Below, piece after piece: positions 1 to 14,400 of a stretch of 18,284 nucleotides of DNA (its first letter is position 1; every line of letters begins with the position of its first letter). The notes under the pieces were generated by a model that was not told the DNA's origin, searched no databases, and saw nothing but the letters and a program-made list of their open reading frames with translations. The position numbers and the translations under genes were made by a program. Source of the DNA: a virus (lineage: Duplodnaviria > Heunggongvirae > Uroviricota > Caudoviricetes); the IMG/VR virus record IMGVR_UViG_2671180878_000013, positions 1 through 18,284 of that record; one strand, given 5' to 3'.

Positions 1-56
1 AAACCCTGGTTAAAATCCACACGATAAAAATGACAATGCAAGTATCTCATGCTGTT

Positions 57-81
57 GCCCGAACCTACTCGGGCTTTTTTT
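57..81 (+). terminator. Rho-independent terminator on the plus strand
   Basis: Perfect 6-bp stem gcccga/tcgggc with 6-nt loop, followed by a run of 7 T. It would stop plus-strand transcription entering from left of the window. Confidence 0.5.
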
Positions 82-399
82 GCATGTAAAAAGGCTCCTG
101 CGATGAGGGGCCTGGATATATGCCTAATCTCTGTATACAGCATGATGCCGGGTGCCTCCCGGTGAATTCTGCAATGACCAGACAGAATCCGCAACTTGCC
201 TATACAATACGCAACCAAACATCTGTCATTATGCCCCGCCGCCCAGGGGGATTCATCATGCAGGATTTTTTTAACAAACGCTCAGCATGTCAGGCAACAG
301 TCGACTACCTGAATTGTGAGGCATTTAACATTTCACTGTCCGGTGTCTTTCCTGTAATAAAAAGCCCGCAAAAGAGAGTCAGGGCAGATAAGTGTGGTG

Positions 400-476
400 T
401 GGCGCGTTGTACTGGATTCGAACCAGTGACCGATTGCTTAGAAGGCAATTGCTCTGTCCGGCTGAGCTAACAACGC
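400..476 (-). tRNA. argN: tRNA-Arg, anticodon UCU (reads AGA)
   Basis: Reverse complement folds as a cloverleaf: acceptor GCGTTGT/ACAACGC, anticodon stem ATTGC/GCAAT, loop CTTCTAA, T-arm ACTGG-TTCGAAT-CCAGT, encoded CCA. Symbol follows the Stx-phage ileZ-argN-argO convention and is tentative. Confidence 0.75.
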
Positions 477-489
477 ATGATGCTGATAA

Positions 490-566
490 TGGACCGCCAT
501 CGGGGACTTGAACCCCGCACAGCCAGCTTCGAAGGCTGACGCTCTATCCCGATGAGCTAATGGCGG
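490..566 (-). tRNA. argO: tRNA-Arg, anticodon UCG (reads CGA)
   Basis: Reverse complement folds as a cloverleaf: acceptor CCGCCAT/ATGGCGG, D-stem GCTC/GAGC, anticodon loop CTTCGAA, T-arm CGGGG-TTCAAGT-CCCCG, encoded CCA. Symbol is tentative. Confidence 0.65.
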
Positions 567-575
567 TATGTGATA

Positions 576-651
576 TGGTGGCCCTTGCTGGATTTGAACC
601 AGCGACCTGGCGATTATGAGTCGCTCGCTCTCACCACTGAGCTAAAGGGCC
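576..651 (-). tRNA. ileZ: tRNA-Ile2-like, anticodon CAU (lysidine type, reads AUA); Met cannot be excluded from the anticodon alone
   Basis: Reverse complement GGCCCTTTAGCTCAGTGGTGAGAGCGAGCGACTCATAATCGCCAGGTCGCTGGTTCAAATCCAGCAAGGGCCACCA closely resembles recalled E. coli ileX/ileY tRNA-Ile2. The 7-bp acceptor stem and encoded CCA are present. Confidence 0.7.
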
Positions 652-813
652 GGGCGCAGGATAATAACGGTACGTAACTAATCCTGCAATATCATCCGTT
701 CTGACTGACTAAATCCTGAACTTCCCTGACCGTCTGCTCAAAACGTTCAGTCTCCAGCTCAACGCCAATTGCACGACGCCCCAGCGACATTGCTGCTTTG
801 ACGCTACAGACAT

Positions 814-842
814 AAAAAAGCCAGCCACTGGGGGAGGCTGGC
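814..842 (-). terminator. Rho-independent terminator on the minus strand
   Basis: Stem gccagcc/ggctggc with a G-rich loop; on the minus strand the hairpin is followed by TTTTTT. Confidence 0.45.
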
Positions 843-1021
843 AAACTCGTAGAGCAAAATGCTGTTACGCAAACTTCGTTACAGGGTCATCCTGCAATAC
901 AAAAAATACACAATATTTAGAAAACTAATAGTGCCATGTGCAATTTTTAAGATTTTGTTATTAATTGTGGTCGCACCTTCCTTTCTGTGTACTTTCCGTA
1001 TAGCTCACAGGATTCTGGGTA

Positions 1022-1046
1022 CAAAAAAACCCGCGCATCGGCGGGT
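1022..1046 (-). terminator. Rho-independent terminator on the minus strand, candidate tR' ending a short pR' transcript
   Basis: Stem acccgc/gcgggt with 6-nt loop; on the minus strand it is followed by TTTTTTTGT. It lies about 60 nt downstream of the candidate pR'. Confidence 0.55.
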
Positions 1047-1093
1047 TCTTAAATCTTATCAACGGTAGACATACAAAGCCCATCGTTGGGAAA

Positions 1094-1122
1094 ATCTTAT
1101 CCATATTTTTTGAAAAATGCAA
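1094..1122 (-). promoter_or_regulatory. Candidate late promoter pR' (Q-dependent antitermination entry site)
   Basis: On the minus strand, -35 TTGCAT (1122..1117), a 17-nt spacer, and -10 TAAGAT (1099..1094), located just downstream of the Q stop and upstream of the terminator at 1022-1046. Confidence 0.4.
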
Positions 1123-1153
1123 GCATCATGTCGTCATCTTCGGCGAAAACCAT

Positions 1154-1906
1154 TTATCTTGTCACCTTTCTCAATTGTATCTCTGCATATGCTTCTTCCT
1201 GCCAGCACTTTGTAACCAGTTTATCAATGACATCTGCATATCCTTTGTACCACTGATAATCCGTCAGGTCTGGTACCAGCTTCTGGACATGAAGCCGCGC
1301 CAGTGTGGTTGGTAAACGGCTAAACCGGTTTCCATTGCAACGCCCACAAACCTTATAAACAGGCGTGCCATGAAGCCGGGTTCTTTTTTCATCCAGGACA
1401 ATACCTTTACCCTTGCACCCTCTGCATGCTGTGCTGACTTCTCCCTTACCATGACAATGCTGACATAGTTCCTTCACCCACTCTTCCTTAATAACAGATT
1501 CCCCGCTTCTGGAGTGTTTCACCACCTCGCGCAATACATTATGAAATCCAGTACCAGCACAATGCTCACAGCGAGCCTTACTTGCCGCAGACCTGGAATA
1601 ATCAGCAAAGGCAAAATTCACAAGGTAAGGAATGATCTGTAGCCGGGTTTCTTCACTCAATTTATTCAATGTCGGGTTATCCAGTGCCATCGCGTAATTG
1701 AGCAGACCTTCAATCGCAAACTGAGGATCCTGAACACCAACTTTTGCCAGGAATAAAGCAAACCCAAGCGGTGCTTTTGACTGCACCATCCCCTGCGCAG
1801 CCATCACATCCGTAATTGTTAAACCACCAGAGCCTGTCGCCGGTGCGTCATCGCTCAGTTTTGGAGATTTCGGGGAGTAATATTTCGGTAAGGCTTCAAG
1901 GTTCAT
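1154..1906 (-). CDS. Q: Antitermination protein Q (phage 82/21-type, zinc-binding)
   Basis: 250-aa ORF starting MNLEALPKYYSPKSPK with paired Cys/His motifs (CEHC, CQHCHGKG, CRGCKGKG, CGRCNG). ATG at 1906 is preceded by GGAGAA. The ORF-track start at 1948 would overlap the upstream gene. Confidence 0.8.
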   Translation of the reverse strand: MNLEALPKYYSPKSPKLSDDAPATGSGGLTITDVMAAQGMVQSKAPLGFALFLAKVGVQDPQFAIEGLLNYAMALDNPTLNKLSEETRLQIIPYLVNFAFADYSRSAASKARCEHCAGTGFHNVLREVVKHSRSGESVIKEEWVKELCQHCHGKGEVSTACRGCKGKGIVLDEKRTRLHGTPVYKVCGRCNGNRFSRLPTTLARLHVQKLVPDLTDYQWYKGYADVIDKLVTKCWQEEAYAEIQLRKVTR

Positions 1907-1919
1907 GCTCGTTCTCCAC

Positions 1920-2969
1920 TTACGCCAGTACGCCAATTGCCAGCGCACGATCGATAAAACGAAATATCAGCTCCAGCTGAGAGCCATACTTCTCTTCAAA
2001 TGCCACGGTATCCGCATGAAGCTCGTTGTGATGCTCCCGACACAGCGGTAGCGTGAAAATATCGTGAGATTTTGTCCCCATTCCGCCCTGACCATGACCA
2101 ATCAGGTGATGGGGATCGTCGGCTGGCTTACCACAACACGCACACGGCTGTGTCTTTACCCAGCGTGTGTATTTCTCATTTACCCAGCGGCGACGTTTAG
2201 GTCGTTTCATGAAGGATTCCGGAGACTCCGGATCAACGGCAATGCTGACCACCGTCTTTTCCTGTGGTGGGTTCTGTTGCTGGTGGGTGTGAGACGGTAG
2301 CGCAATATTTTTTGTGCGCTGCTTCAGTATGCTGGTGGCGGTCTGTTCTCCCGGTATGATGTCGCTTTCACGGTATACGGAGCGGATTTTTTCCGCACGC
2401 AACCCCAGCGAACGACGTAATACCGCTTCCGGTAGCGCGTCCGCCACCTGATTGCGGACCGCCCACCAGGATAATTCAGCCAGCGATAATTCCCGTTCCT
2501 GTATGCCATTCATTGCGTGGCGGATGACGTCAATCATCCATGCTGACAGGTTTTGTTGAGCAAGTTGCTCGAGTGATTCTGATGTCTGGTCGCGCAGCTG
2601 GTTGTCACAGTGCCAGCACAACACCATCGCGCCGGTACCATAACGGTGAATGACTGTTTCGCTGTGATGATAATCGCCGTGTGGCCACTGGCAGGATTTC
2701 ACGTGACGTAATAACCAGTCAGACAGTGCACCTGCACCACCTGCTGCACGAATAACCCGCTCATCGCTGAAAAATGGCAGTAATGTTTTATCCTCTGCCA
2801 GCGGCTGGCGAACGGCAGGAACGACTCCGGACGGCAGACCGCGCATGTTTTTCGGTTCCGGCTCCACCAATATTCTGCCGTTATGGAATACTGACATTGA
2901 TTCACGGCCTGGCTTAACGATAACCAGACCGAGTTCCGGTACCAGAACAGGTCGAAGTAATACCCGCAC
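1920..2969 (-). CDS. ydfU: DUF968-family prophage protein with C-terminal HNH-like motif (YdfU-like)
   Basis: 349-aa ORF with C-terminal CACCGKPADDPHHLIGHGQGG...CREHHNELH motif, at the position just upstream of Q as in Qin. The start appears to be GTG at 2969 with GGAGG 4 nt upstream; an ATG at 2897 is an alternative. Confidence 0.7.
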   Translation of the reverse strand: MRVLLRPVLVPELGLVIVKPGRESMSVFHNGRILVEPEPKNMRGLPSGVVPAVRQPLAEDKTLLPFFSDERVIRAAGGAGALSDWLLRHVKSCQWPHGDYHHSETVIHRYGTGAMVLCWHCDNQLRDQTSESLEQLAQQNLSAWMIDVIRHAMNGIQERELSLAELSWWAVRNQVADALPEAVLRRSLGLRAEKIRSVYRESDIIPGEQTATSILKQRTKNIALPSHTHQQQNPPQEKTVVSIAVDPESPESFMKRPKRRRWVNEKYTRWVKTQPCACCGKPADDPHHLIGHGQGGMGTKSHDIFTLPLCREHHNELHADTVAFEEKYGSQLELIFRFIDRALAIGVLA

Positions 2970-2970
2970 G

Positions 2971-3240
2971 TTACCTCCAGATGCGCTGCTGGAATGTGCG
3001 GGACGGACGCGGTGGGCGTTCGGAATAAGGGAGCCTGGCGGAGATTATCCAGTGACGACGATCGAAGCTGAGATCTTTCTGAAACTCGTAACCACGCCTG
3101 CGGTAACACTGGATCAGCCATTCGGCCTGTTCTTCAGTGCATAGGGGATGCTGGAACCAGTCGGTTTTAAATACGTGCGAACACCGCCCTTGCCTACTGG
3201 CAAGGGCGGCAGAATTGTGCAATCTGCTATCGTGCGCCAT
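2971..3240 (-). CDS. Hypothetical 89-aa protein, translationally coupled to the DUF968 gene
   Basis: ATG at 3240 preceded by GGAG. The stop TAA sits inside the GGAGGTAAC ribosome-binding site of the next gene. Product not recognised. Confidence 0.45.
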   Translation of the reverse strand: MAHDSRLHNSAALASRQGRCSHVFKTDWFQHPLCTEEQAEWLIQCYRRRGYEFQKDLSFDRRHWIISARLPYSERPPRPSRTFQQRIWR

Positions 3241-3293
3241 CGGGATCTCCGGTGGCACGGTGTTTCTCAGCGACGGTTCAAGTCAGCCTGATT

Positions 3294-3521
3294 TTATAGC
3301 TGCTTCTGAATATCATCAACAGGTAATCCTGCCAACTCTCTTACCTCAGAAAGAAGAGAAAGGCTTACAACAACCTCATTACTTCGCATAACAAAACCAC
3401 ATTGAAAAGAACCATCACTGTTTCTGTAAACAACAACCGGGCGCGTGCTCTCATAAAACCCCGGGATCAAACTGGCTGGGATTTTCACAACACCTCCTGA
3501 CGTAAAGGAAATGAAATGCAT
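3294..3521 (-). CDS. Hypothetical 75-aa protein (rem position of Qin)
   Basis: ATG at 3521 preceded by GAGAGAAG. Product MHFISFTSGGVVKIPAS... not recognised; its position between the hok and ydfU homologs matches rem in Qin. Confidence 0.35.
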   Translation of the reverse strand: MHFISFTSGGVVKIPASLIPGFYESTRPVVVYRNSDGSFQCGFVMRSNEVVVSLSLLSEVRELAGLPVDDIQKQL

Positions 3522-3744
3522 TATCGCTTCTCTCGGACTATAACCATGAAAAGAGACGCATTTCACTCAGTAAATCTGAGGATTTTATGCGCAAGAACAA
3601 TGACTTTTTCTGTCTGCCGTTTATACAATCTGAATTACGTCTGTTTTTTGAACACCGATAAATCAGCAAGCATTCTCAAATAAAGATTGCCTCCATAGTC
3701 CACATGGTGTAACACTATGTGTTATATAAAATGCAGAGGCAGGT

Positions 3745-4116
3745 ATGCGAATTTTCAAAAACGCCTGGTTTGAACGTTTCGCCCGAAAACATCGGATTTC
3801 CGATAAATCGCTGCGCAAAATCGTGGAGCAGGCCGATAAGGGGATCATATCCGCAAATTTGGGTAGTGGTGTCATTAAACAAAGATTAGCCCGAAGTGGT
3901 GGCGGAAAATCAGGCGGTTACCGGACAATAATTTTTTACCGCGTTGCAGAAAAAGCCTTTTTCATCTACGCATACGCAAAGAATGAACGAGAGAATATCA
4001 CTGCTATAGAGGAAAATGCTTTTCGAAAAGCCGCTCCCCATGTCCTCAATCTTACTGATGAACAGCTGGCACAATTGATTCAACAAGGCCAGTTCACGGA
4101 GGTACCCAATGAGTAA
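3745..4116 (+). CDS. higB: HigB-like (RelE/ParE superfamily) toxin
   Basis: 123-aa ORF with GGYRTIIFY...FFIYAYAKNEREN motif resembling HigB-type toxins. GAGG lies upstream of the ATG, and the gene overlaps the downstream antitoxin gene by 8 nt. Confidence 0.6.
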   Translation: MRIFKNAWFERFARKHRISDKSLRKIVEQADKGIISANLGSGVIKQRLARSGGGKSGGYRTIIFYRVAEKAFFIYAYAKNERENITAIEENAFRKAAPHVLNLTDEQLAQLIQQGQFTEVPNE

Positions 4117-4426
4117 AAATTACCGCAGTGATGCACTTGCATCTGTACATGAAATGATGGAGTCACTCCATGATATCGGTGCAATCACAAAACAAACTAT
4201 GCGCGAATTCGATGAAACTTGTCTTCAGCCTGCGCCGGTAATGTCTCCGGAAAGGATCCGTGCACTGCGAGAACGAGAGCATCTGTCTCAACCTGTTTTT
4301 GCCAGATACCTCAACGTCAGTAAAAACCTGATATCAGACTGGGAACGAGGAGTGAAACGCCCGGGAGGTGCAGCTCTTCGGCTTCTTTCAGTTGTCGAGA
4401 AAAACGGGATCCAGGTAATATCCTGA
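4109..4426 (+). CDS. higA: HigA-like HTH (XRE-family) antitoxin
   Basis: 105-aa ORF with a C-terminal HTH (LSQPVFARYLNVSKNLISDWERGVKRPGGAALRLL). The toxin-first, overlapping arrangement is typical of HigBA. Confidence 0.6.
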   Translation: MSKNYRSDALASVHEMMESLHDIGAITKQTMREFDETCLQPAPVMSPERIRALREREHLSQPVFARYLNVSKNLISDWERGVKRPGGAALRLLSVVEKNGIQVIS

Positions 4427-4499
4427 TATTCTAATACAACAAAACCCGCCGAAGCAGGTTAAGTGCGGGTGCGTTGAGGATGCCTGACACATCAGAGGT

Positions 4500-4521
4500 G
4501 GCGAGGGATTTCTCCCTCGCC
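4500..4521. repeat. Perfect hairpin ggcgaggga-tttc-tccctcgcc between the convergent higA and hok genes
   Basis: 9-bp perfect stem with 4-nt loop seen directly; no flanking T-run on either strand, so it is not a canonical intrinsic terminator. Confidence 0.5.
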
Positions 4522-4528
4522 AGGTCTC

Positions 4529-4684
4529 TTACTCCTCAGGTTCGTAAGCTGTGAAGACAGCGACCTCCGTCTGGCCGGTTCGGATTCGTACCTCGCAGAG
4601 GTCTTTCCTCGTTACCAGTGCCGTCACTATGACGGTTAAACAGATGACAATCAGGGCGATTAACATCGCCTTTTGCTGCTTCAT
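4529..4684 (-). CDS. hokD: Hok/Gef-family membrane toxin
   Basis: 51-aa product MKQQKAMLIALIVICLTVIVTALVTRKDLCEVRIRTGQTEVAVFTAYEPEE matches recalled HokD/RelF almost exactly. AAGGAG lies 9 nt upstream of the ATG at 4684. Confidence 0.85.
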   Translation of the reverse strand: MKQQKAMLIALIVICLTVIVTALVTRKDLCEVRIRTGQTEVAVFTAYEPEE

Positions 4685-4917
4685 AGCCTGCTTCTCCTTG
4701 CCTTTCGGCACGTAAGAGGCTAACCTACATGTGCAAAGCATGAAATTGGCCTCAGATTAATGTTAAGCGTCCTGCAAGACGCGTAATGTTAACTGGGGCT
4801 TTTCTCTGTCTGCCTTACGGCGGCATGCCCGAGGCAGACAGCCTCAAGCACCCGCAGCAATTCTACTTAACTCTTCTTTCCCCGCAAATCATTTTATCCC
4901 CGATGGTAATGTTCTCC

Positions 4918-4937
4918 CGATATGGGAATTCCCATAT
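4918..4937. repeat. 20-bp perfect palindrome GATATGGGAATTCCCATATC
   Basis: Seen directly; lies between the stop of the ORF6N gene and the hok leader. Candidate protein-binding site or processing structure. Confidence 0.6.
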
Positions 4938-4955
4938 CAAGGTTAACTCAATCGG

Positions 4956-5507
4956 TTAAAGCTCCATTAATTTTCCGGCCAGTTCATCTCGTGGCATTAC
5001 CAGCCATCCGCGCGATTTAAGCAAAGCCAGGGCTTCTTCAACCGTCACCAGCTGGCCAGGCGCATAACTTCGGATGAAGGCGGTTTTATCGTCACGGATC
5101 GCCAGGTGAAAATCGATATTCATTTTTCCCATAGCCCGCTCTTTCTCGTACTGGTTGAAGTAACTGTCTTCGAGTTTTTCGAATACTTCCCACGCCTGAT
5201 CGGTTTCGAGCATTTTTGCATGACGGGCTGCTCCGCGTTCTGTCCAGAGGATGAGAGTGCGGGTTTTGGGAGAAATTTTCACCTCATTTTGCGACTCGTT
5301 TAAAACTAGTCGCAAATTTTTGAGCTCATCACCAACAGCTTTAAAGAAGTGTTTTCCCTCAATAAATCGAGATTTATTTTCATGGTGATTCTGCTGTATA
5401 CGGATTGCTTCTGTTCCGTAAAGGCGGGCGAGTAACTCAGTTGTGATTACAGGAATCTGGTTATAAGTGACAGGGGAAAGGTTTTTGACAGTAACTTGAG
5501 TCGTCAT
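4956..5507 (-). CDS. ORF6N/KilA-N-type DNA-binding protein (antirepressor-like)
   Basis: 183-aa ORF with an N-terminal pattern (LARLYG...RFIEGKHFFK...TERGAARHAKMLETDQAWEVFEKL) characteristic of ORF6N domains. AGAGGG lies upstream of the ATG at 5507. Confidence 0.6.
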   Translation of the reverse strand: MTTQVTVKNLSPVTYNQIPVITTELLARLYGTEAIRIQQNHHENKSRFIEGKHFFKAVGDELKNLRLVLNESQNEVKISPKTRTLILWTERGAARHAKMLETDQAWEVFEKLEDSYFNQYEKERAMGKMNIDFHLAIRDDKTAFIRSYAPGQLVTVEEALALLKSRGWLVMPRDELAGKLMEL

Positions 5508-5671
5508 GATAACGCCCTCTGGTTGATGAATTTAACTATCACCACCTTCAGGTCTCAATCATCAGGTGGCGAGACGTACAGGGTTGAGACTACCGGATCA
5601 ACCAACCGGCCAGCCTTTCGGCTGCCCCATACGCCTCACCATAATTCAGATGTGCGTGCGCATACGACAAT

Positions 5672-5693
5672 AAAAAACACGCTCGCGGCGTGT
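5672..5693 (-). terminator. Candidate tR2-like Rho-independent terminator on the minus strand
   Basis: Stem acacgc/gcgtgt with 5-nt loop; on the minus strand it is followed by TTTTT. It sits between the replication/accessory genes and the ORF6N gene. Confidence 0.35.
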
Positions 5694-5778
5694 GTCTGTC
5701 GCGGTTGAATATCCGGGGTCTCAATCCCGACGGTCAACTCGACCGTGCGGTGAATATAGCCCCGGATTAGTAATTACG

Positions 5779-5862
5779 TCAACCCCAGCGGCAAATCGAA
5801 TAAACCACCAGCGCTACCGCCATTGCAACTCCTGCCGTTACGAATGCCTCAGGCCAGGTCAT
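5779..5862 (-). CDS. Candidate 27-aa hydrophobic peptide (MTWPEAFVTAGVAMAVALVVYSICRWG)
   Basis: Hand-translated. Its ATG overlaps the stop of the upstream 61-aa ORF as ATGA, and GAGG lies 10 nt upstream. One predicted transmembrane helix. Confidence 0.3.
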   Translation of the reverse strand: MTWPEAFVTAGVAMAVALVVYSICRWG

Positions 5863-6044
5863 CGTAAACTATCCTCAGCGCCAATCAGTCCGTTTCGCTT
5901 CAGGCAGTCCATCGCTTTATACGGTAATTTGGCTGACAGGCGAAAATCACCCTGCAGCATCAGGCTTATTCCCTTATCCCGGGCTTTCGCTCTGACCGCT
6001 GCCTCGCTACGACCAATCAGACTGCCGATACTTTCGACAGTCAT
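5859..6044 (-). CDS. Hypothetical 61-aa protein, possible small HTH regulator
   Basis: MTVESIGSLIGRSEAAVRAKARDKGISL... from the ATG at 6044. The longer 111-aa ORF-track version would overlap the upstream gene by 90 nt. Confidence 0.35.
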   Translation of the reverse strand: MTVESIGSLIGRSEAAVRAKARDKGISLMLQGDFRLSAKLPYKAMDCLKRNGLIGAEDSLR

Positions 6045-6103
6045 CGTTCCCGCGCACTGCCGGAGTATCAGAATTTCAGCCCGGCACCACGTCTTCCACC
6101 CAC

Positions 6104-6865
6104 TCACCGCTGCTGTTCTCTGGTGGCGGTAATATCCCGGAGAATATCCCGGCACTTGTTCAGCTCCCGCAGCGCGGCGCAGACTCGCTCCCACTTCTGA
6201 ACCTGACCTTTTGCCCGGCGCAGCTCGCGGTTAGCCACATGCAGCGATGGTAAAATCAGCCCATCCGGATGCTTTCTGGTGAACGACGGCTGTGACTGCA
6301 CTGTGACCGCCACACTTTCCGTTTTTATTTCTTCCTGTGTTTCCGCTTCCCGGACTGGTAACGCAACACATGCTGGCTGAGGAAAGGCCTTACCATCATT
6401 TTCCGTTACCAGCGCGGCTTTCGGCTCTGCTGGTAAATTATCGCCCGGCATGCAGTAACGAAATCTACCGTTCTGATTAACGCGTGCCAGCCGCCCCGTT
6501 GCGGTTACCACCGCCAGCGTGGAAGCAACCTTGCGAGTACTGACACTGAACTTACCCGCTATTTCTTCACAGGTTTTAGCCCCCTCCTGAGCGATAAACT
6601 CAATCATCATGTTAGCGCTAACTTTTGGAGCGACCTCTTCGGTCAGCATATCCTGTGTTTCAGATTTTACTGGCCGCTCTTCGGTTACCCGGGATTCACC
6701 TTCGACAGCCAGAAACCAGGTGTGACCCGTTTTATCAACAACGCCATTTTTTTTGAGCTCCCACAGTTCGTTGAGAACTTCTTCACGGCTGATATCAATT
6801 CGTGCCGCCAGTTCAACAGAATTGGCTTTACCCATCGCTTTCAGTGCATGCAATACGGTTTCCAT
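6104..6865 (-). CDS. Hypothetical 253-aa protein with two predicted winged-helix domains (ren position, just downstream of the P-like gene)
   Basis: ATG at 6865 preceded by GGAGGAAG. Two HTH-like segments (SVELAARIDISREEVLNELWELKKNGVV and CEEIAGKFSVSTRKVASTLAVVTATGRLARV) and a basic C-terminus; family not recognised. Confidence 0.55.
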   Translation of the reverse strand: METVLHALKAMGKANSVELAARIDISREEVLNELWELKKNGVVDKTGHTWFLAVEGESRVTEERPVKSETQDMLTEEVAPKVSANMMIEFIAQEGAKTCEEIAGKFSVSTRKVASTLAVVTATGRLARVNQNGRFRYCMPGDNLPAEPKAALVTENDGKAFPQPACVALPVREAETQEEIKTESVAVTVQSQPSFTRKHPDGLILPSLHVANRELRRAKGQVQKWERVCAALRELNKCRDILRDITATREQQR

Positions 6866-6899
6866 TAAAACTTCCTCCGGATAAAAATTACTTCTCAAA

Positions 6900-7565
6900 T
6901 CAGACAAAACCAGCCGCTTTCCGGCGTTCATACTCCTGTTTCAGCAACTCAATTGGCGTTGGTCCCAACGGGCGTTTTGGTGCCGCCAGTTGTCGCCGTA
7001 CTGGCGGAACGCTCAGGCCGTTACTAACATGCTTTGCCCATTTCGTCAGCTGCCGTTCTGCAAGCCGTTTTAATTCCCCTTCGGTCATCTGGCGTTCAAT
7101 CCCCTCTGAACGCATCTCGAGGCAAATGTGATACAGCACAGGCTGAGGCCACGGATATTTGTCGCTTCCGTTATATCGCCAGGACTCATTACGCCAGCGG
7201 CGATACTCCTCCATCACAGCATCCACCGTCAGGCCAAATGGATTGGCCCCGCTTTCCGAAATCAGCGCCACAAACTCAGCCAGGTCCGGAGGCCATGTTT
7301 CACCCGCCCGGCAGCGGTCCATGCACTGGCGGCAGACCTGCCGGATTTGCTGCTCAGTCATCGCGCCAATCTGTGCAATCCAGAGCTTCGAAGGTGCGGC
7401 CCCGTTCTTCTGGGTCCAGCGGTTCGAATAAACCTCCCCCATGAGTTCCCACAGCTTCCAGGCCGTTTCCGTCGCTGATAAATCCGTTTTCACGTTCCCA
7501 CTGCTCACGTGCTGCCCGAATTTCCTGAACTGCCCGTGATGCGGTGCCACCTGGTGCTGCTGCAT
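6900..7565 (-). CDS. Lambda P-like replication protein (helicase loader)
   Basis: The C-terminal two thirds resemble recalled lambda P (YPWPQPVLYHICLEMRSEGI..., GELKRLAERQL...). Start is uncertain: the frame is open to 7565, while an ATG at 7361 overlaps the O-like stop by 8 nt. Confidence 0.6.
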   Translation of the reverse strand: MQQHQVAPHHGQFRKFGQHVSSGNVKTDLSATETAWKLWELMGEVYSNRWTQKNGAAPSKLWIAQIGAMTEQQIRQVCRQCMDRCRAGETWPPDLAEFVALISESGANPFGLTVDAVMEEYRRWRNESWRYNGSDKYPWPQPVLYHICLEMRSEGIERQMTEGELKRLAERQLTKWAKHVSNGLSVPPVRRQLAAPKRPLGPTPIELLKQEYERRKAAGFV

Positions 7566-8394
7566 GGTTTACCCCCTTGCTGACTGGTTTAACCTGCGCC
7601 CTGACGTGATTTACGTGACGGGCGAATTTCTGCTCCCACTGAATCTGCGTAAACACTTTCCCCTCCGCTGCCCAGTAGTCCCGGAATGCGGTAAGTTCAG
7701 CAGGTGTAAATTCTGTCTCCGGCAAAGCCATCCCCCACAACGCAGCCCGTCGTCGAAAATCCCGTGACGGATACCAGCTATCGGTCATCGGAAATTTTCC
7801 GATGGGTTCGCTCAGGCCATCCAGGAATACATGGGGGGCTGCCTGTAACGACAAAACTTCCTGCTCACTGATCGGAGCACTCTCGCGTGCGTTATGTGTG
7901 GGGTTTAGATCTTTGGGTTCCTTTGGGTTCCGTGATCCGTTTTTGGGTGTCTTTGATGGAAAATTTGGGTGTCTTTGGTTATTTTCCATGCAACAAAGAG
8001 TTCCGTTTTTGGGGCTCTTTTGTGCTGAAACATAACCGTTTTCGGTACTGTTTTTATTAACAGCACCAATTTTACCCACCTTTAAAGACACCCGTTTTTG
8101 GGTGTATTCAGGCTCGGCAACACTTTCTTCTACACCGATAAGTCGGTACACCACAATTTGCTTTGTTCTGCCTTTTCTCTCACCGGTATCAACAATTAAC
8201 CCAATCTCCATCAGGTGTCGTAAGCTGTCCTGCACAGTCTTTTTGTTCAGTTCCGTTACTTCTGCCAGTGCAGATACAGACGGGTATGCACACAAATCGG
8301 CACCGCACATATCAGCAAGCCAGGTCAATACAGACTTACTGGATGAACTGCCGGTTTTCACCTTTTTAGCCCATCGTAGTGCATCGATACTCAT
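7354..8394 (-). CDS. Replication initiator (lambda O analogue): N-terminal HTH, linker encoding the origin, C-terminal DnaT-like domain
   Basis: N-terminus MSIDALRWAKKV...SVSALAEVTELNKKTVQDSLRHLMEIGLI is HTH-like. C-terminal segment GKFPMTDSWYPSRDFRRRAALWGMALPETEFTPAELTAFRDYWAAEGKVFTQIQWEQKFAR matches the recalled E. coli DnaT C-terminus. AGGGG lies upstream of the ATG at 8394. Confidence 0.75.
   Translation of the reverse strand: MSIDALRWAKKVKTGSSSSKSVLTWLADMCGADLCAYPSVSALAEVTELNKKTVQDSLRHLMEIGLIVDTGERKGRTKQIVVYRLIGVEESVAEPEYTQKRVSLKVGKIGAVNKNSTENGYVSAQKSPKNGTLCCMENNQRHPNFPSKTPKNGSRNPKEPKDLNPTHNARESAPISEQEVLSLQAAPHVFLDGLSEPIGKFPMTDSWYPSRDFRRRAALWGMALPETEFTPAELTAFRDYWAAEGKVFTQIQWEQKFARHVNHVRAQVKPVSKGVNHAAAPGGTASRAVQEIRAAREQWERENGFISDGNGLEAVGTHGGGLFEPLDPEERGRTFEALDCTDWRDD
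7911..8103. repeat. Origin of replication: iteron array plus AT-rich region inside the initiator gene
   Basis: Tandem ctttgggttc x2 (7911-7930); tttgggtgtctttg at 7942-7955 and 7964-7977; TTTGGG(T/G) cores again at 8007-8013 and 8096-8102; inverted copy aaagacacccg at 8083-8093; AT-rich block 8030-8080. Coincides with the PKNG-rich linker of the initiator. Confidence 0.7.
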
Positions 8395-8917
8395 ACGAAC
8401 CCCTGGCAGATATTTGTTTATCTGCAAAGTAATATTGATACTGCTGACGATACGCATGCTTGAAAGCAATAGCTTTTTCTATAAGCTCGTCAGTCTCACG
8501 TTCCACAACAGATGGATCCGCAAAAAGCAGTCCGGACTCCACCACATCGCCATATTCTTTGTTTAACCCGGCGATCATGTACGTGATGCTTTTTCCGTCA
8601 CTAATTTCACGATACAACCTGAAATCATTAATCCGGATAGCCTCCATAATTGCAGGCACTAGCGCCGTGAACTTTTCACGCTTATCCCTGGTGTCGATAG
8701 CCTTCCAGCGTTCGAATATCTTCACTCGATTAACGCCAAGCGCTCGCTGATCAACCGCGCCACCTTCATCTGTGACACGCTGAACATCGATGTTCGGGCG
8801 CTCTTTCAAAACCCAGAATGCTTCAGTGATTAATATCGTCGCCTGCTCCTGTGTCATTCCTGGTCGACATATCCAGGCATCCAGAGCCTCACGAGCCTGT
8901 TCAGGAGTGATTTTCAT
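8366..8917 (-). CDS. Hypothetical early protein at the cII position (possibly YdaT-like)
   Basis: 183-aa ORF between the cro-like and initiator genes. The family assignment rests on position only and is weak. Confidence 0.4.
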   Translation of the reverse strand: MKITPEQAREALDAWICRPGMTQEQATILITEAFWVLKERPNIDVQRVTDEGGAVDQRALGVNRVKIFERWKAIDTRDKREKFTALVPAIMEAIRINDFRLYREISDGKSITYMIAGLNKEYGDVVESGLLFADPSVVERETDELIEKAIAFKHAYRQQYQYYFADKQISARGSYEYRCTTMG

Positions 8918-9057
8918 TGTTCAACCGCCCCGCCCGCTTTGCCTTACGATATTCGTCATAAACTTTGGGGTCGTACTGAAGTTCCCCGCCGGATGCCTCT
9001 TGCAGGCGCATCGCGCGACCTTCAGGAACTAGCTCTTGCCATTGAGAAACAGCAGAT
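8901..9057 (-). CDS. Cro-like (YdaS-type) HTH protein, C-terminal fragment; N-terminus lost in the gap
   Basis: Minus-strand translation adjoining the gap reads ...SAVSQWQELVPEGRAMRLQEASGGEL..., resembling the end of an XRE-type HTH. It is divergent from the repressor-like gene. Confidence 0.35.
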
Positions 9058-9081
9058 NNNNNNNNNNNNNNNNNNNNNNNN
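9058..9081. other. Assembly gap: 24 N of unknown true length
   Basis: A run of N in the sequence. Both flanking genes lack N-termini, so the gap must stand for several hundred missing bases covering the divergent repressor/cro promoter-operator region. Confidence 0.9.
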
Positions 9082-9082
9082 C

Positions 9083-9331
9083 GCCGAGGTATTGCAATGT
9101 TCACCAACCTGGATACTGTTTGGCGACGAGGACAAAACACCAGCTCCCCCTGTTTCACTCGATAGTACCCTAGACTTATCGGAAGATGAGTTAGAGATGC
9201 TGCGTTTGTATCGCGCACTTCCTAAATCAGAGCAACAAGCACAACTCAGCGAACTCCGCGCCCGCGTTGAGAATTTTAATCGCCTGTTCACCGAGCTATT
9301 AGAGGCTCGCAAACGCAACAAGCATCAATAA
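9083..9331 (+). CDS. dicA: DicA-like (cI-analogue) repressor, C-terminal fragment; N-terminal HTH lies in the gap
   Basis: (A)EVLQCSPTWILFGDEDKTPAPPV...LSEDELEMLRLYRALPKSEQQAQLSELRARVENFNRLFTELLEARKRNKHQ matches the recalled C-terminal half of E. coli DicA. Confidence 0.7.
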   Translation, partial: AEVLQCSPTWILFGDEDKTPAPPVSLDSTLDLSEDELEMLRLYRALPKSEQQAQLSELRARVENFNRLFTELLEARKRNKHQ

Positions 9332-9418
9332 TCATCCCTTCACAAAATTTTAAAGCCTTACATTTCAATGTATTGGCTTTATCTTGCGCCAATACTTGAG
9401 TTTTCTCATCAAAAAACC

Positions 9419-9473
9419 TTGACGAAAAATAATGAGAAAACTAAATTATCTCCATCAACACACCGCACGGTGT
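9419..9473 (+). promoter_or_regulatory. Candidate promoter of the dicB-type operon with a downstream palindromic operator
   Basis: -35 TTGACG (9419-9424), 17-nt spacer, -10 TAAATT (9442-9447), then the 14-bp palindrome ACACCGCACGGTGT (9460-9473). Confidence 0.45.
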
Positions 9474-9523
9474 TCTCCGCAAACAGTTCCGCTACCCCGG
9501 CGTTAAGGGGAAATGAGGTCAAC

Positions 9524-9676
9524 ATGGATACGCTCAATCTTGGCAACAACGAATCTCTGGTATGCGGAGTATTCTCCAACCTGGACGGCACGTTTACCGC
9601 GATGACGTATACCAGAAGCAAAACGTTTAAAACGGAAGCTGGCGCGCGTCGCTGGTTAGCAAGAAACTCTGACTGA
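9524..9676 (+). CDS. ydfA: YdfA-like small protein
   Basis: 50-aa product MDTLNLGNNESLVCGVFSNLDGTFTAMTYTRSKTFKTEAGARRWLARNSD, first gene after the repressor as in Qin; GAGG upstream of the ATG. Confidence 0.7.
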   Translation: MDTLNLGNNESLVCGVFSNLDGTFTAMTYTRSKTFKTEAGARRWLARNSD

Positions 9677-10326
9677 TGAGGTTGACGATGGAATTTAAAG
9701 ATTTACCTCCTTCAATCCAGGAGATTGCAGCACACACACTTCGTCATCGTCTGAACGAACTTGAATTGGAATCGGTAACGAAAAAAGACACTGATAATAT
9801 GGCTCGTAATGTGCGCGATGCGTTTACCGGATTGTATTTCTGTGCGTCTATAAATAAACACGACTCAGAGAGTGTGGCAAATAAAATTGCAGAAACGACA
9901 GCGCAAAACATCAATACGAAACCAACGGAAGAAGAAATTGATCAGTTTGCTCATGATGCTGGTTTAAAAAACAAGAAAGAAAAATCGCCATATGCGGGGA
10001 ACATGTTTGTTTATGACAATCTCATCAGAATTCGTGGCGAAATTCCGGCGGAATACCTGGCAAGAGTCCATCAGGCATTGCTTAAAAATTTGGAAACAGA
10101 ATTATTTGATGGCAACACTAACGGTTTCTTCATGGTATCAGGCCTTGAGAAAGACTGGGATGCAGAAAAACGCTGGAATGTTGCTACATGGTTATTCAGT
10201 AACAGAGCCGCTGCACTGGAAGCTTCGGCATGTATTTGCGGCCTGTTCTTAACAGACCACAAATATAATCTGGATGTGTACAGTTATATTTACGCTGAAC
10301 ACGGTCCACTCTGGATTGACTGGTAA
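9676..10326 (+). CDS. Hypothetical 216-aa protein, or 212 aa from the ATG at 9688; family not recognised
   Basis: ATG at 9676 overlaps the ydfA stop as TGATG; the alternative ATG at 9688 has GAGG 6 nt upstream. Sits where Qin has ydfB/ydfC. Confidence 0.6.
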   Translation: MRLTMEFKDLPPSIQEIAAHTLRHRLNELELESVTKKDTDNMARNVRDAFTGLYFCASINKHDSESVANKIAETTAQNINTKPTEEEIDQFAHDAGLKNKKEKSPYAGNMFVYDNLIRIRGEIPAEYLARVHQALLKNLETELFDGNTNGFFMVSGLEKDWDAEKRWNVATWLFSNRAAALEASACICGLFLTDHKYNLDVYSYIYAEHGPLWIDW

Positions 10327-10536
10327 TTATAAGGAAACACCAGCAGGGCCGCGGCGACCAACAGAACGATTAAAATCAATAATGCCATTATAAAGGACAT
10401 TATTTAATTTATCGTCGAATGCTGATTCTGTGAGCCTCAACTCTGAATGAGTTTTTAATAACCCTGATTGCCTGAGTTGATTTACCAGGCATTCAATCTG
10501 TTTTTCAATAAGCGGATTTCTTTTTTTGTTTGGCAT
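10327..10536 (-). CDS. Hypothetical 69-aa protein, convergent with and abutting the 212-aa gene
   Basis: ATG at 10536 preceded by GGAGGA. Its stop codon directly abuts the stop of the plus-strand gene. Product MPNKKRNPLIEKQIECLVNQLRQSGLL... not recognised. Confidence 0.45.
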   Translation of the reverse strand: MPNKKRNPLIEKQIECLVNQLRQSGLLKTHSELRLTESAFDDKLNNVLYNGIIDFNRSVGRRGPAGVSL

Positions 10537-10874
10537 TTTATCCTCCATTGAGGTTCTGGGTTAAAAATGGAGACCAACACGCTGTCACGTGTGGTCGTGC
10601 GCCGGACACGGATAAGAATCCGGTACTGACAGTTTACTGAAAGGATATTTCCCTGAAAAGTCAGTGCATAACGCGAAAGCGTACGGCGAAGCTCTTTCCC
10701 TTAGAAGGCTTGTCGTTAGATTTCTTCGAACGTGCGCTTCCGGTTGTGGCACTCCGCGAAATGGCGCGGCGGTAAGTATGGCGGGGTTATTCCTTCCCCA
10801 GTTGAGGACACCGGGTTGTCAGGTTGACCATACGCTTAAGTGACAACCCCGCTACAACGCCCTCTGTTATCAAT

Positions 10875-10933
10875 ATTCTGGTGACATTTGGCGGTATCAG
10901 TTTTACTCCGTGACTGCTCTGCCGCCCTTTTTT
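10875..10933 (+). ncRNA. dicF: DicF small RNA (ftsZ-targeting sRNA of the dicB operon)
   Basis: attctggtgacatttggcggtatcagttttactccgtgactgctctgccgccctttttt matches recalled E. coli DicF, including the terminator hairpin and T-run. Ends are approximate. Confidence 0.8.
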
Positions 10934-11103
10934 AAAAGTGAATTTTGTGATGCGGTGAATGCGGCTCAGCGCACGCGGAACAGTTAAAACCAAAAACAGT
11001 GTTATGGGTGGATTCTCTGTATCCGGCGTTAATTGTTAACTGGTTAACGTCACCTGGAGGCACCAGGCACCGCATCACAAAATTCATTGTTGAGGACGCG
11101 ATA

Positions 11104-11292
11104 ATGGAAAAGTTATCATGTAATGCCAGCACGTCTGAACTTCGTTTCGAAATTGGCGTTATCACTGGAGACAAAACATTTATTGAAGACGCCATTAAGC
11201 AGAGAAAACTCGAGCAGGACCTGTTAAATGAAGTATGCATTCCTTCAATGCTGGCTCGTCTGGACCTGCTGCAAAAAGGATATAAACAATGA
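11104..11292 (+). CDS. dicB: Cell-division inhibitor DicB
   Basis: 62-aa product MEKLSCNASTSELRFEIGVITGDKTFIEDAIKQRKLEQDLLNEVCIPSMLARLDLLQKGYKQ matches the recalled DicB pattern (FEIGV...EDAI..RK...LLN..CI.SMLARL); GAGG upstream. Confidence 0.8.
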   Translation: MEKLSCNASTSELRFEIGVITGDKTFIEDAIKQRKLEQDLLNEVCIPSMLARLDLLQKGYKQ

Positions 11293-11480
11293 ATACAACA
11301 TTTGCACTCGTTCTGACAGTTTATCTTGTTTCCGGCGAATCTCTTGAGCTGGTGACTGGCTTATACGGTTCAATGAAAGAATGCATGGCTGCAGCAGCAG
11401 AACAAAAAATTCCCGGTAACTGTTATCCGGTAGATAAAACTACTCACACTAATAATAACGAAATACCGGCAGGACTTTAA
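11289..11480 (+). CDS. ydfD: YdfD-like small membrane protein (lysis-associated in Qin)
   Basis: 63-aa ORF whose ATG overlaps the dicB stop as ATGA; hydrophobic N-terminus MNTTFALVLTVYLVSG; same position and length as ydfD. Confidence 0.65.
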   Translation: MNTTFALVLTVYLVSGESLELVTGLYGSMKECMAAAAEQKIPGNCYPVDKTTHTNNNEIPAGL

Positions 11481-11573
11481 AACAGCACCGTAATTAATAT
11501 CCGGTTTCATTTTTATATGCCAGCAATGGCAGGGATTTGTTCACCCTTAAATCTGTAATGAGGTTAAAACAAA

Positions 11574-14045: not shown

Positions 14046-14114
14046 TGTTCAACCATCGCCGGTTGTGACTGGTATTCTGCAACCGGCCCTCATCTGATGT
14101 AAGAGATAAAAGCG

Positions 14115-14366
14115 ATGAGCGAAGTAATCATGATTGTCTCTCCCGGTAAATGGGTATCCGAAGAGCAGTTAATTGCGCTGAAAGGAATAAAAAAAGGTAC
14201 GTTAAAAAAGGCCCGGGAAAAATCGTTTATGGAAGGAAGGGAATATAAGCATGTCGCTCATGACGGTATGCCATGGGATAACAGTCCATGCTTTTACAAC
14301 CTGGAAGAAATTGATCGCTGGATTGAGCGCCAGGCATCTGCAAGACCAAGACGTCATCTTGCTTGA
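14115..14366 (+). CDS. xis: Excisionase (Xis-like, winged-helix)
   Basis: 83-aa ORF immediately upstream of the integrase on the same strand; AAGAGA upstream of the ATG. Confidence 0.65.
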   Translation: MSEVIMIVSPGKWVSEEQLIALKGIKKGTLKKAREKSFMEGREYKHVAHDGMPWDNSPCFYNLEEIDRWIERQASARPRRHLA

Positions 14367-14400
14367 CTAAAAGCAACACGAACCAATGAGAGAAGCTGAA

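Follow-up and report, generated by a model that had tools for sequence, protein, structure and literature searches.

Layout of the late-gene region

The window, that is, the whole 18,284-nt stretch of IMG/VR virus record IMGVR_UViG_2671180878_000013 that we analyzed, opens at its left end with the features listed in Table 1. On the minus strand the order is Q, pR', two terminators (t1 and t2), a methylase remnant, ileZ-argN-argO, a 39-nt slot and an STnc100-type gene, which faces an EcOnc03-type gene on the plus strand. Based on these features, we consider it very likely that bases 1-1153 are the leader of a late operon together with its cargo slot, from a Qin-type lambdoid E. coli prophage that lacks stx, with a convergent sRNA pair at the end. 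All of this is already known, the layout having appeared in papers of 2014 and 2020.

Table 1. Features at the left end of the window, in the order of late transcription.
Feature	Position	Strand	Evidence
Q, late-gene antiterminator, lambda type (ydfT/QuuQ-like), 250 aa	1154..1906	-	Pfam, PDB, RefSeq
pR' late promoter	1079..1122	-	Colinear alignment with lambda pR'
First intrinsic terminator t1, hairpin and U7	1023..1047	-	Fold, annotation in Ayreon, Sp5 identity
StxS 3'-fragment homologue, GU|AUU RNase E motif to terminator t2	814..898	-	Sakai Sp5 alignment, fold
DNA methylase C-terminal remnant (pseudogene)	692..805	-	RefSeq, PHROG, Sp9 comparison
tRNA-Ile, anticodon CAU, ileZ	576..651	-	ARAGORN; Rfam tRNA 72.5 bits; RefSeq and Sakai naming
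tRNA-Arg (UCG), argN	490..566	-	ARAGORN; Rfam tRNA 55.9 bits; Sakai argN2 anticodon tcg
tRNA-Arg (UCU), argO	400..476	-	ARAGORN; Rfam tRNA 70.1 bits; Sakai argO2 anticodon tct
Empty cargo ('moron') slot, 39 nt	320..358	-	blastn versus Sakai Sp5
STnc100 / EcOnc27-28 / PasD-type sRNA gene	82..297	-	Rfam RF02076, promoter-like site, PasD2 alignment
EcOnc03-type anti-sRNA gene (AgvB/AsxR family)	11..81	+	Rfam, EcOnc03 identity, terminator scan

O26:H11 11368 carries bases 1-1153 at 100% identity, and the sequence of the late leader is identical in more than 100 finished genomes. Bases 1-400 joined to the rest of the window were not found in any complete E. coli genome. In O26:H11 11368, the flank to the left of base 1 carries esterase, holin, RrrD and lysis protein genes; the esterase gene starts 127 nt left of the window on the minus strand, and no plus-strand gene is annotated in this flank. 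The window itself ends before the esterase, and this neighbor is known from identical or related loci. A nanS-type esterase lies on the late strand at the left in all related IMG/VR loci with enough flank (81/81), and in every related locus examined it is the left neighbor, with lysis genes of the same orientation after it. The initial annotation had placed lysis genes among the candidates for what lies beyond the left edge, where the identical O26:H11 11368 locus indeed has them. Ordinary host genes devoid of any late-region remnant, which by that annotation would have spoken against it, are not what this flank holds in O26:H11 11368; esterase and lysis genes stand there instead.

The Q gene matches the Pfam family PF03589 ('Antitermination protein Q') at 177.2 bits (cut-off 26.7), and among solved structures it is closest to lambda Q (PDB 7ubm, E = 1.5e-37). 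RefSeq labels the gene 'antitermination protein'. Directly downstream, pR' consists of a -35 box TTGCAT (1122..1117), a 17-nt spacer and a -10 box TAAGAT (1099..1094). Six nucleotides past the -10 box lies a -10-like element, AACGATGGG (1087..1079), which contains AACGAT. The corresponding lambda elements (TTGACT, TAAATT and AACGATGGG) are colinear with these, the last being identical and the spacing equal. In lambda, the AACGATGGG element is the sigma-70-dependent pause signal. The predicted transcription start of pR' is at about 1087.

From this start, the first terminator would end a predicted transcript of about 65 nt, which bears out the initial proposal of a candidate pR' with a terminator about 60 nt later. 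The 69-nt leader ending in t1 folds at -24.8 kcal/mol (z = -4.1). The hairpin is annotated as 'terminator' in phage Ayreon, and its sequence is identical in Sakai Sp5. Rfam matches in 963-1091 (STnc370 and the Leu and Trp leaders) were weak, all far below gathering scores. The first terminator is also the junction of two sequence modules, and the Q/pR'/t1 module is common to Stx2c phages, in which stx2c is driven by such a module.

A PF03589 Q, a promoter directly downstream with a -10-like element, and intrinsic terminators together make up a Q-type antitermination unit. The unit resembles that of lambda in its Q family, in the colinear promoter elements and in having terminators that precede the lysis genes. 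It differs in the length of Q (250 aa versus 207 aa in lambda) and in the position of the first terminator (after about 65 nt versus 194 nt in lambda), and it has two terminators in tandem. Also unlike in lambda, the holin gene is separated from pR' by an esterase gene and a stretch of about 1 kb that holds tRNA and sRNA genes.

The second terminator claimed downstream of pR' was found at 842..814, with a stem at 842..820, a U run at 819..814 and a fold z of -3.05. It corresponds to tR' of Stx phages, which was mapped by Term-seq 258 nt from pR' (Sy et al. 2020, PMC7547250), and therefore a near-identical StxS RNA is encoded here. The 3' 85 nt of the StxS homologue here differ from Sakai Sp5 by one mismatch, and the last 75 nt, including the terminator, are identical. 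We also considered tR' as annotated in phage Nil3, which projects onto an AT-rich stretch between two hairpins, where there is no terminator.

The methylase remnant is labeled 'DNA methylase, incomplete, missing N-terminus' in RefSeq and matches a PHROG DNA methyltransferase (E = 1.4e-37); the gene is intact in Sakai Sp9. Downstream of it, covariance-model prediction accepted all three tRNA genes proposed initially (for scores, see Table 1). The Ile-Arg-Arg trio itself stands, although the two Arg anticodons had been swapped: ARAGORN, Rfam and the comparison with Sp5 give the transcription order Ile(CAU)-Arg(UCG)-Arg(UCU). The same ileZ-argN-argO order is found upstream of stx2A in Sakai Sp5. 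Immediately past argO (399-340), a weak hairpin with a T run was considered as a terminator of the tRNA operon and rejected, since it folded no better than shuffles (z = 0.22). Overall, the initial reading of Q, a late promoter, two tandem terminators and a tRNA trio arranged as in Stx phages was upheld.

The last 400 bp had been described as free of protein-gene starts. Consistent with this, we found no minus-strand protein gene in 1-400, where RefSeq has no CDS and no ORF has a Pfam match above threshold. ORFs in 1-470 were likewise rejected as genes for want of above-threshold Pfam matches. Their matches are small PHROGs of unassigned function, and we read these families as over-called ORFs because one ORF runs antisense across the tRNA genes.

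The cargo slot

In 933W and Sakai Sp5 the order is Q, pR', ileZ-argN-argO, stx2AB, EcOnc27/AsxR, nanS-p and S-R-Rz. An Stx2 phage examined with the Rfam models has the tRNAs, stx2AB, STnc100 (207.7 bits), AsxR (88.1 bits) and the esterase in this order. The window resembles Sp5 in order and sequence from t1 through the tRNAs (94%) and again from the STnc100-type gene onwards. The Stx phages 933W and Sp5 differ from it by the presence of stx, by another Q and pR' module and by another anti-sRNA class. With blastn, positions 1048..359 of the window align with Sp5 1369-2052 and positions 319..41 with Sp5 3394-3668, which leaves 39 nt here where Sp5 has 1342 bp including stx2AB. The distance between argO and the STnc100 model is 109 nt, with no CDS between. 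The tRNA trio of Stx prophages is thus present, while stxA and stxB are absent between the tRNA genes and the sRNA pair. Whatever follows the tRNAs had been assumed to lie just outside the window; the Sp5 alignment instead places the toxin slot inside it, at about 358-320, and empty.

One may ask if the region arose by recent loss of stx from a Shiga-toxin phage, through a clean excision between argO and the STnc100-type gene. Both slot flanks are homologous to those of the Stx2 phage Sp5 (94% upstream, 79% downstream), the StxS region hardly differs from its counterpart in Stx phages, and the Q/pR'/t1 module is the same as the one driving stx2c in Stx2c phages. We nevertheless regard a recent deletion as improbable, because the downstream flank is closer to the stx-less Sp9 (91% identity, versus 79% to Sp5) and because the 39-nt slot junction is identical in Sp9 and in phage phi296. 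The IMG/VR sample argues in the same direction. Anti-sRNA genes in this sample fall into three classes (61 AgvB, 41 EcOnc03 and 16 AsxR), and in EcOnc03-class loci argO lies within 500 nt of the anti-sRNA gene in 24 of 32 cases, as in the window. STnc100 is adjacent in 31 of the 32. Slot content follows the class, with stx2 in 0/32 EcOnc03-class and 9/9 AsxR-class loci. Since anti-sRNA class tracks slot content, an old and widespread empty-slot lineage is indicated rather than a fresh deletion. The data are compatible with either ancestral gain or ancestral loss of the cargo.

The late leader is of minor weight as a discovery, and it has some practical value in annotation and slot scoring. The distance from argO to the STnc100-type gene lets the cargo slot be scored as empty or toxin-bearing, and whether stx2 is present went with the anti-sRNA class (EcOnc03 or AsxR) among the IMG/VR loci sampled.

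The convergent sRNA pair

The STnc100-type gene, overlooked together with its terminator in the initial account of the minus strand, matches Rfam RF02076 at 170.9 bits (gathering score 47), spanning 290..82 and model positions 1-206. A promoter-like site (CTGACA-17-AAAAAT) lies at 297..265, which would place the transcript start at about 261. The terminator comprises a hairpin at 121..96, whose stem has a C.A mismatch, and a U run to about 88-89 that abuts the plus-strand terminator. Folded alone, the 209-nt STnc100 region was no better than shuffles (z = -0.46), so that support for this RNA comes from the covariance model and the homologues. STnc100 (RF02076) corresponds to EcOnc27/EcOnc28 of O157 Sakai, which the gene resembles in its full-length match, its place directly upstream of the esterase and its terminator. 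The Sp5 copy, at 79% identity, comes after stx2B, whereas the gene here directly follows the tRNAs. The promoter and 5' end also align with PasD2 of EPEC E2348/69; PasD differs in its 3' half, which carries a UGUGAG seed.

The EcOnc03-type gene has a -10 box TAAAAT at 11-16, with its -35 box just outside the window, and encodes a predicted RNA from about 22 to 81 (~56-60 nt) that ends in the terminator at 57-81. The Rfam AgvB model matches at full length over 22-81. Its score barely reaches the gathering score (56.2 versus 56 bits) because the 5' third differs from AgvB; AsxR scores 44 bits. The RNA shares 50 of 51 bases with EcOnc03 of the O157 Sakai prophage Sp9 (Tree et al. Fig. S4), which places it in the AgvB/AsxR anti-sRNA family. 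Members of this family are sRNAs of 51-60 nt with a variable, class-defining 5' region of 14-18 nt. The RNA has the conserved 3' region of ~42 nt ending in a Rho-independent terminator, with the core motif exact, and its 5' region, AAAAATGACAATGCA, is that of EcOnc03. The one difference is a base in the terminator loop (CCTACT here versus CCCACT in EcOnc03), and the CCTACT-loop allele is itself common, being found unchanged in 14 of the 119 IMG/VR matches. The promoter is conserved across all three anti-sRNA classes.

The position also fits the family. EcOnc03, AgvB and AsxR are alike in length, 3' region with terminator, promoter and location convergent with a longer sRNA; here the convergent STnc100-type gene adjoins on one side, and the esterase on the other is known from identical or related loci. 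In 29 of 29 EcOnc03-class loci of the IMG/VR sample, the esterase gene begins some 165 nt further left and is read from the other strand. Downstream of pR', convergent sRNA pairs flanked by a cargo gene and a conserved ORF have been described in Sp3, 4, 5, 9, 10, 11, 15 and 17 (Tree et al. 2014, PMC4104026). In the same study, EcOnc03 of Sakai was Hfq-dependent, with lengths of 56, 54 and 51 nt, and its RNA was detected by northern blot and 5' RACE. AgvB sponges GcvB and AsxR destabilizes FnrS (Tree et al. 2014, PMC4104026), whereas no anti-sRNA activity or target has been reported for EcOnc03, which among the papers covered is named in that one alone. Two candidate links of the EcOnc03 5' region to core sRNAs were compared by eye and are too weak to claim: MgrR, whose seed shares AUGCAAG with it, and GcvB, with an interrupted match of 6+3 bp.

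The plus-strand terminator at 57-81, already noticed in the initial annotation, was found by a terminator scan as a 6-bp stem with five G-C pairs and a T7 tail. The scan returned five terminators in 2 kb versus 2.1 +/- 1.4 expected, and a single match is not significant alone; we accept this one as real because of the Rfam AgvB match and the EcOnc03 identity. A different role for the hairpin would be as half of a two-way terminator that mainly stops the minus-strand STnc100-type RNA or read-through from pR'. The two terminators do stand back to back, about 6 nt apart (57-81 on the plus strand and 121-88 on the minus strand), and the C.A mismatch weakens the STnc100-type stem. On the minus strand, however, the 57-81 hairpin has an A run before it and no U run after it, and therefore lacks the tail of an intrinsic terminator. 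Moreover, the 42 plus-strand nt upstream of it belong to a conserved RNA family whose promoter is conserved too, and northern blot and 5' RACE have detected the homologous RNA in Sakai, which makes such a role very unlikely. As for a convergent, presumably protein-coding gene entering from the left, which the initial annotation had proposed, the terminator is good and starts only 56 nt from the window's edge, so that the window alone would leave room for one, but we give it almost no credence because the ~58-nt sRNA starting at about base 22, with its conserved -10 box, accounts for the transcript, and the left flanks described above (O26:H11 11368 and the 81 IMG/VR loci) have a late-strand esterase in that place. 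None of the three sRNA genes of the region is annotated in RefSeq, and an unexplained convergent terminator therefore keeps turning up for readers of the sequence or its annotation.

Expression scheme and StxS

From lambda and O157 Sakai we infer the following scheme, in which promoters, starts and Hfq binding are assumed to be as in homologues. In the lysogen, pR' would fire constitutively and transcription would end at t1 or t2, yielding short RNAs of which one would be StxS-like. The two sRNA genes would be transcribed from their own promoters, and their RNAs would bind Hfq. Upon induction, Q would modify the RNA polymerase paused at pR'. The modified polymerase would then pass every terminator and cross the tRNAs and both sRNA genes, running antisense to EcOnc03, and read-through would go on into the esterase, holin, lysozyme and spanin genes left of the window.

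StxS, the short pR'-tR' transcript of Stx1/Stx2a phages, has been reported to correlate with a 144-aa Q, whereas the Q upstream of its sequence here is of the lambda type and 250 aa long, and the pR' is lambda-like. The full transcript is predicted to be about 274 nt, versus 258 nt in Stx phages. Unlike those phages, the prophage here is without the toxin. Of 5426 complete E. coli genomes, 176 combine the StxS sequence with such a Q and pR' in a Qin-type prophage that lacks the toxin.

For StxS to be made here, transcription from a pR' unlike that of Stx phages would have to pass t1. Leakage of the first terminator is evident in Stx phages.

If t1 leaks, non-Stx prophages of O26, O103, O111 and O145 might supply StxS-type RpoS activation together with the EcOnc03 anti-sRNA, a possibility that we put forward tentatively and with some doubt. 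If true, it would mean that phage control of host sRNA networks depends neither on toxin carriage nor on the type of Q.

Late promoter, tRNA genes and terminators

Sequence comparison identifies the parts of bases 1-1153 and establishes their order. All of the features listed in the initial annotation (Q, a late promoter, two terminators, three tRNA genes and a plus-strand terminator) were found, although its interpretation of them was supported only in part. Except for a small RNA (the anti-sRNA) on the plus strand, these features read along the minus strand, in the direction of late transcription.

Features of bases 1-1153, the Q gene and the rest of the window
Feature	Position	Strand	Remarks
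Q gene	1154-1906	minus	250 aa; Pfam PF03589 at 177 bits
pR' -35 box, TTGCAT	1122..1117	minus	directly downstream of Q; 17-nt spacer to the -10 box
pR' -10 box, TAAGAT	1099..1094	minus	
AACGATGGG element	1087..1079	minus	six bases past the -10 box
t1, first intrinsic terminator after pR'	1047..1023	minus	strong hairpin and seven U; leader fold -24.8 kcal/mol, z = -4.1
t2, second intrinsic terminator (tR' of Stx phages)	842..814	minus	hairpin and U run; fold z = -3.05
tRNA (CAU), ileZ in Sakai	651..576	minus	ARAGORN and Rfam tRNA model; Ile in RefSeq
tRNA-Arg (UCG), argN	566..490	minus	ARAGORN and Rfam tRNA model
tRNA-Arg (UCU), argO	476..400	minus	ARAGORN and Rfam tRNA model
STnc100 RNA, full-length	290..82	minus	Rfam 170.9 bits, gathering score 47
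EcOnc03-type -10 box, TAAAAT	11-16	plus	upstream sequence conserved across all three family classes
AgvB-family RNA	22-81	plus	Rfam 56.2 bits, gathering score 56
sok	4679-4853	minus	Rfam 117 bits, at gathering score; next to hokD
C4 antisense RNA	5562-5646	minus	Rfam 69 bits, at gathering score; isrK directly after
isrK	5672-5746	minus	Rfam 51 bits, at gathering score
DicF	10876-10927	plus	Rfam 77 bits, at gathering score
Integrase gene	14386-15681	plus	
nleC, type III effector gene	16472-17458	minus	beyond the 15733 end of the O103:H2 homology; likewise in CFSAN027343

The closest solved relative of the Q protein is lambda Q (7ubm, E = 1.5e-37). When the promoter is aligned with lambda pR', the boxes stay colinear, and AACGATGGG recurs unchanged at the same spacing. 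We take AACGATGGG to be lambda's -10-like element, which pauses the polymerase so that Q can load. Because of this colinearity and the identical pause element, we accept the site at 1122..1079 as pR' and put its start near 1087.

Both ARAGORN and the Rfam covariance model recovered the expected tRNA trio, with the two arginine anticodons in the reverse of the order first proposed. The resulting order, ileZ-argN-argO, is exactly that found upstream of stx2A in Sp5, the stx2 prophage of O157 Sakai. In Sp9, the stx-less prophage of the same strain (locus L006, 4155-4236), ileZ and argO are kept but lie 80 nt apart, which means that argN is either missing or partly deleted; a methylase gene is intact in Sp9 and a remnant in the window.

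The predicted transcript end at t1, about 65 nt from the start, agrees with the earlier estimate of about 60 nt past pR'. Sp5 has the identical t1 hairpin, at about +24 to +50 of its transcript, and there it evidently does not halt all transcription. In both Sakai Stx phages the 3' end of the pR' transcript was mapped by Term-seq 258 nt from pR', and RNase E cleavage at a GU|AUU motif yields the regulatory RNA StxS (Sy et al. 2020, PMC7547250). Placed on the window after correction for a coordinate shift between genome versions, this end corresponds to t2, and the 85 nt from the GU|AUU motif to the U run (898..814) differ from Sp5 by one base.

The t1 hairpin (1014-1047) is a recombination junction at which two modules meet. 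The module at 800-1047 travels with a 144-aa Q in O157 Stx phages. The module at 1014-1200 travels with a lambda-type (ydfT-like) Q in many other, non-EHEC E. coli and occurs in phages mEp460 and Ayreon and in Stx2c phages, where Q, pR' and t1 also stand upstream of stx2c, about 2.1 kb from the tRNA block. The joined form is found in 176 of 5426 genomes. StxS is reported to correlate with the 144-aa Q, and some non-toxigenic phages also have it (Sy et al. 2020, PMC7547250); here StxS-type sequence (814-1122 region) follows a lambda-like pR' and a PF03589 Q of 250 aa.

An empty toxin slot and two convergent small RNA genes

The content that follows the tRNA genes had been placed outside the window. 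Alignment with Sp5 puts the toxin slot inside it, and empty: 1048..359 aligns at 94% and 319..41 at 79%, and between these blocks the window has 39 nt where Sp5 has 1342 bp including stx2AB. The same 39-nt junction is present in Sp9, which is 91% identical to 802..1, and in the stx-less phage phi296. The corresponding order in the Stx2 phage VT2phi_272 is tRNAs, stx2A, stx2B, STnc100 (207.7 bits), convergent AsxR (88.1 bits) and esterase.

An STnc100-type RNA on the late strand had been overlooked. Its homologue in Sp5 is EcOnc27, whose northern probe sequence matches the Sp5 copy, and in EPEC E2348/69 the same slot is occupied by PasD2, which aligns with the window at its promoter and 5' end. 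This alignment points to a promoter at 297..265 and to a start near 261; a promoter scan independently listed a promoter-like site at 293..265. The evidence for this RNA is the covariance model and its homologues, as folding energy alone gave no support (z = -0.46). In its terminator stem (96-121) the window has a C.A mismatch where Sp9 has U-A; the Sp5 stem is fully paired.

The plus-strand terminator at 57-81, also picked up by a terminator scan, had been attributed to a convergent gene entering from the left. It instead closes a small RNA that starts inside the window, so no gene need enter. The AgvB score of this RNA is marginal solely because its 5' third is unlike AgvB, and the AsxR model gives 44 bits. 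It equals EcOnc03 of Sp9 at 50 of 51 bases (Tree et al. 2014, Fig. S4), the one change lying in the terminator loop. EcOnc03 ranked third in abundance among unannotated Hfq-bound RNAs; it has sizes of 56, 54 and 51 nt, its 5' ends have been mapped, and it loses stability when Hfq is absent (Tree et al. 2014, PMC4104026). No naming of EcOnc03 other than in that paper was found in the literature searched. The -35 region of the window's copy lies just beyond the window edge.

About six bases separate the EcOnc03 terminator from the end of the STnc100-type 3' hairpin and its U run, and the two genes thus converge. Convergent small RNA pairs between a post-pR' cargo gene and a conserved ORF were described in Sp3, 4, 5, 9, 10, 11, 15 and 17 (Tree et al. 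2014, PMC4104026), and the architecture of bases 1-1153 is exactly this known one.

In phi296 (locus L004, 4760-4850) the STnc100-type gene is present with no AgvB/AsxR-family match; where the anti-sRNA would be, there is another hairpin, rich in G+C and with an A/T run, that has no Rfam match. ORFs at 120-470 (plus) in the window and 8814-9218 (minus) in L001, a locus reaching left of base 1, match small PHROGs that have no known function (E = 1e-19 and 2e-14). They run antisense over the tRNA genes or over the two small RNA genes, and the families were probably assembled from over-called ORFs on conserved non-coding DNA.

Left flank, family survey and late transcription

Over bases 1-1153 the window shows 100% identity to O26:H11 11368 and to many genomes of O26, O145, O111 and O103 strains. 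On the left, 11368 carries esterase (starting 127 nt from base 1), holin, RrrD lysozyme, lysis protein and terminase genes, all on the late strand, and no long plus-strand ORF approaches the 57-81 terminator there; at this identical locus, lysis genes beyond the edge were borne out and a convergent gene coming in from there was not. On the late strand a hairpin with a T6 run closely precedes the esterase gene (L001 8970-8996, 4-30 nt beyond base 1 on the left). It overlaps the EcOnc03 -35 region and is conserved in Sp5, Sp9 and phi296 as well as upstream of each of the three anti-sRNA classes.

When IMG/VR was scanned for the core that the anti-sRNAs share, at least 119 loci matched, and those listed fall into only three classes by their 5' region: AgvB (at least 61), EcOnc03 (at least 41) and AsxR (at least 16). 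The exact window allele occurs at least 14 times among the matches listed. Of the listed EcOnc03-class loci, 32 have 3 kb or more of sequence on the tRNA side; in these, STnc100 adjoins in 31, argO lies within 500 nt in 24 and stx2 is present in none; stx2 is present in all nine listed AsxR-class loci with enough flank. An esterase N-terminus, read from the opposite strand, stands about 165 nt to the left in 29/29 listed EcOnc03 loci, and likewise to the left in 81/81 listed loci overall. Given this last count, the source of the window very likely has the esterase and lysis genes to its left.

No complete E. coli genome has the whole window in one piece. The match to O26 11368 is 98% over bases 1-2234, the backbone (400-15733) is 99.9% identical to the Qin-site prophage of O103:H2 strain 129, and 9453-18284 match CFSAN027343 at 99.8%. 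Since dicB, dicC, relE and ydfT are annotated here in related strains, the element is related over its full length to the Qin prophage of K-12. In the backbone relatives (L010, L011), the strain 129 prophage among them, the slot behind the tRNAs is filled by two hypothetical genes together with genes for TerB and DUF3927; in strain 129 the esterase comes after these. The O103:H2 homology stops at 15733, with rspB next in that strain; beyond nleC, the window and CFSAN027343 continue into tail-fibre genes of a neighbouring prophage.

By analogy with work on lambda and Sakai, pR' would be constitutively active in the lysogen and give short RNAs ending at t1 or t2, while the STnc100-type and EcOnc03 RNAs would be made from their own promoters and bound by Hfq. 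Upon induction, Q would carry the polymerase past t1, t2, the tRNA genes, the STnc100 terminator and the further conserved hairpin left of the window, into the esterase and lysis genes, transcribing the antisense of EcOnc03 in passing. The feature is real and already described, and its sequence is common; the pairing of StxS sequence with a 250-aa Q adds only a little to the picture drawn by Sy et al.
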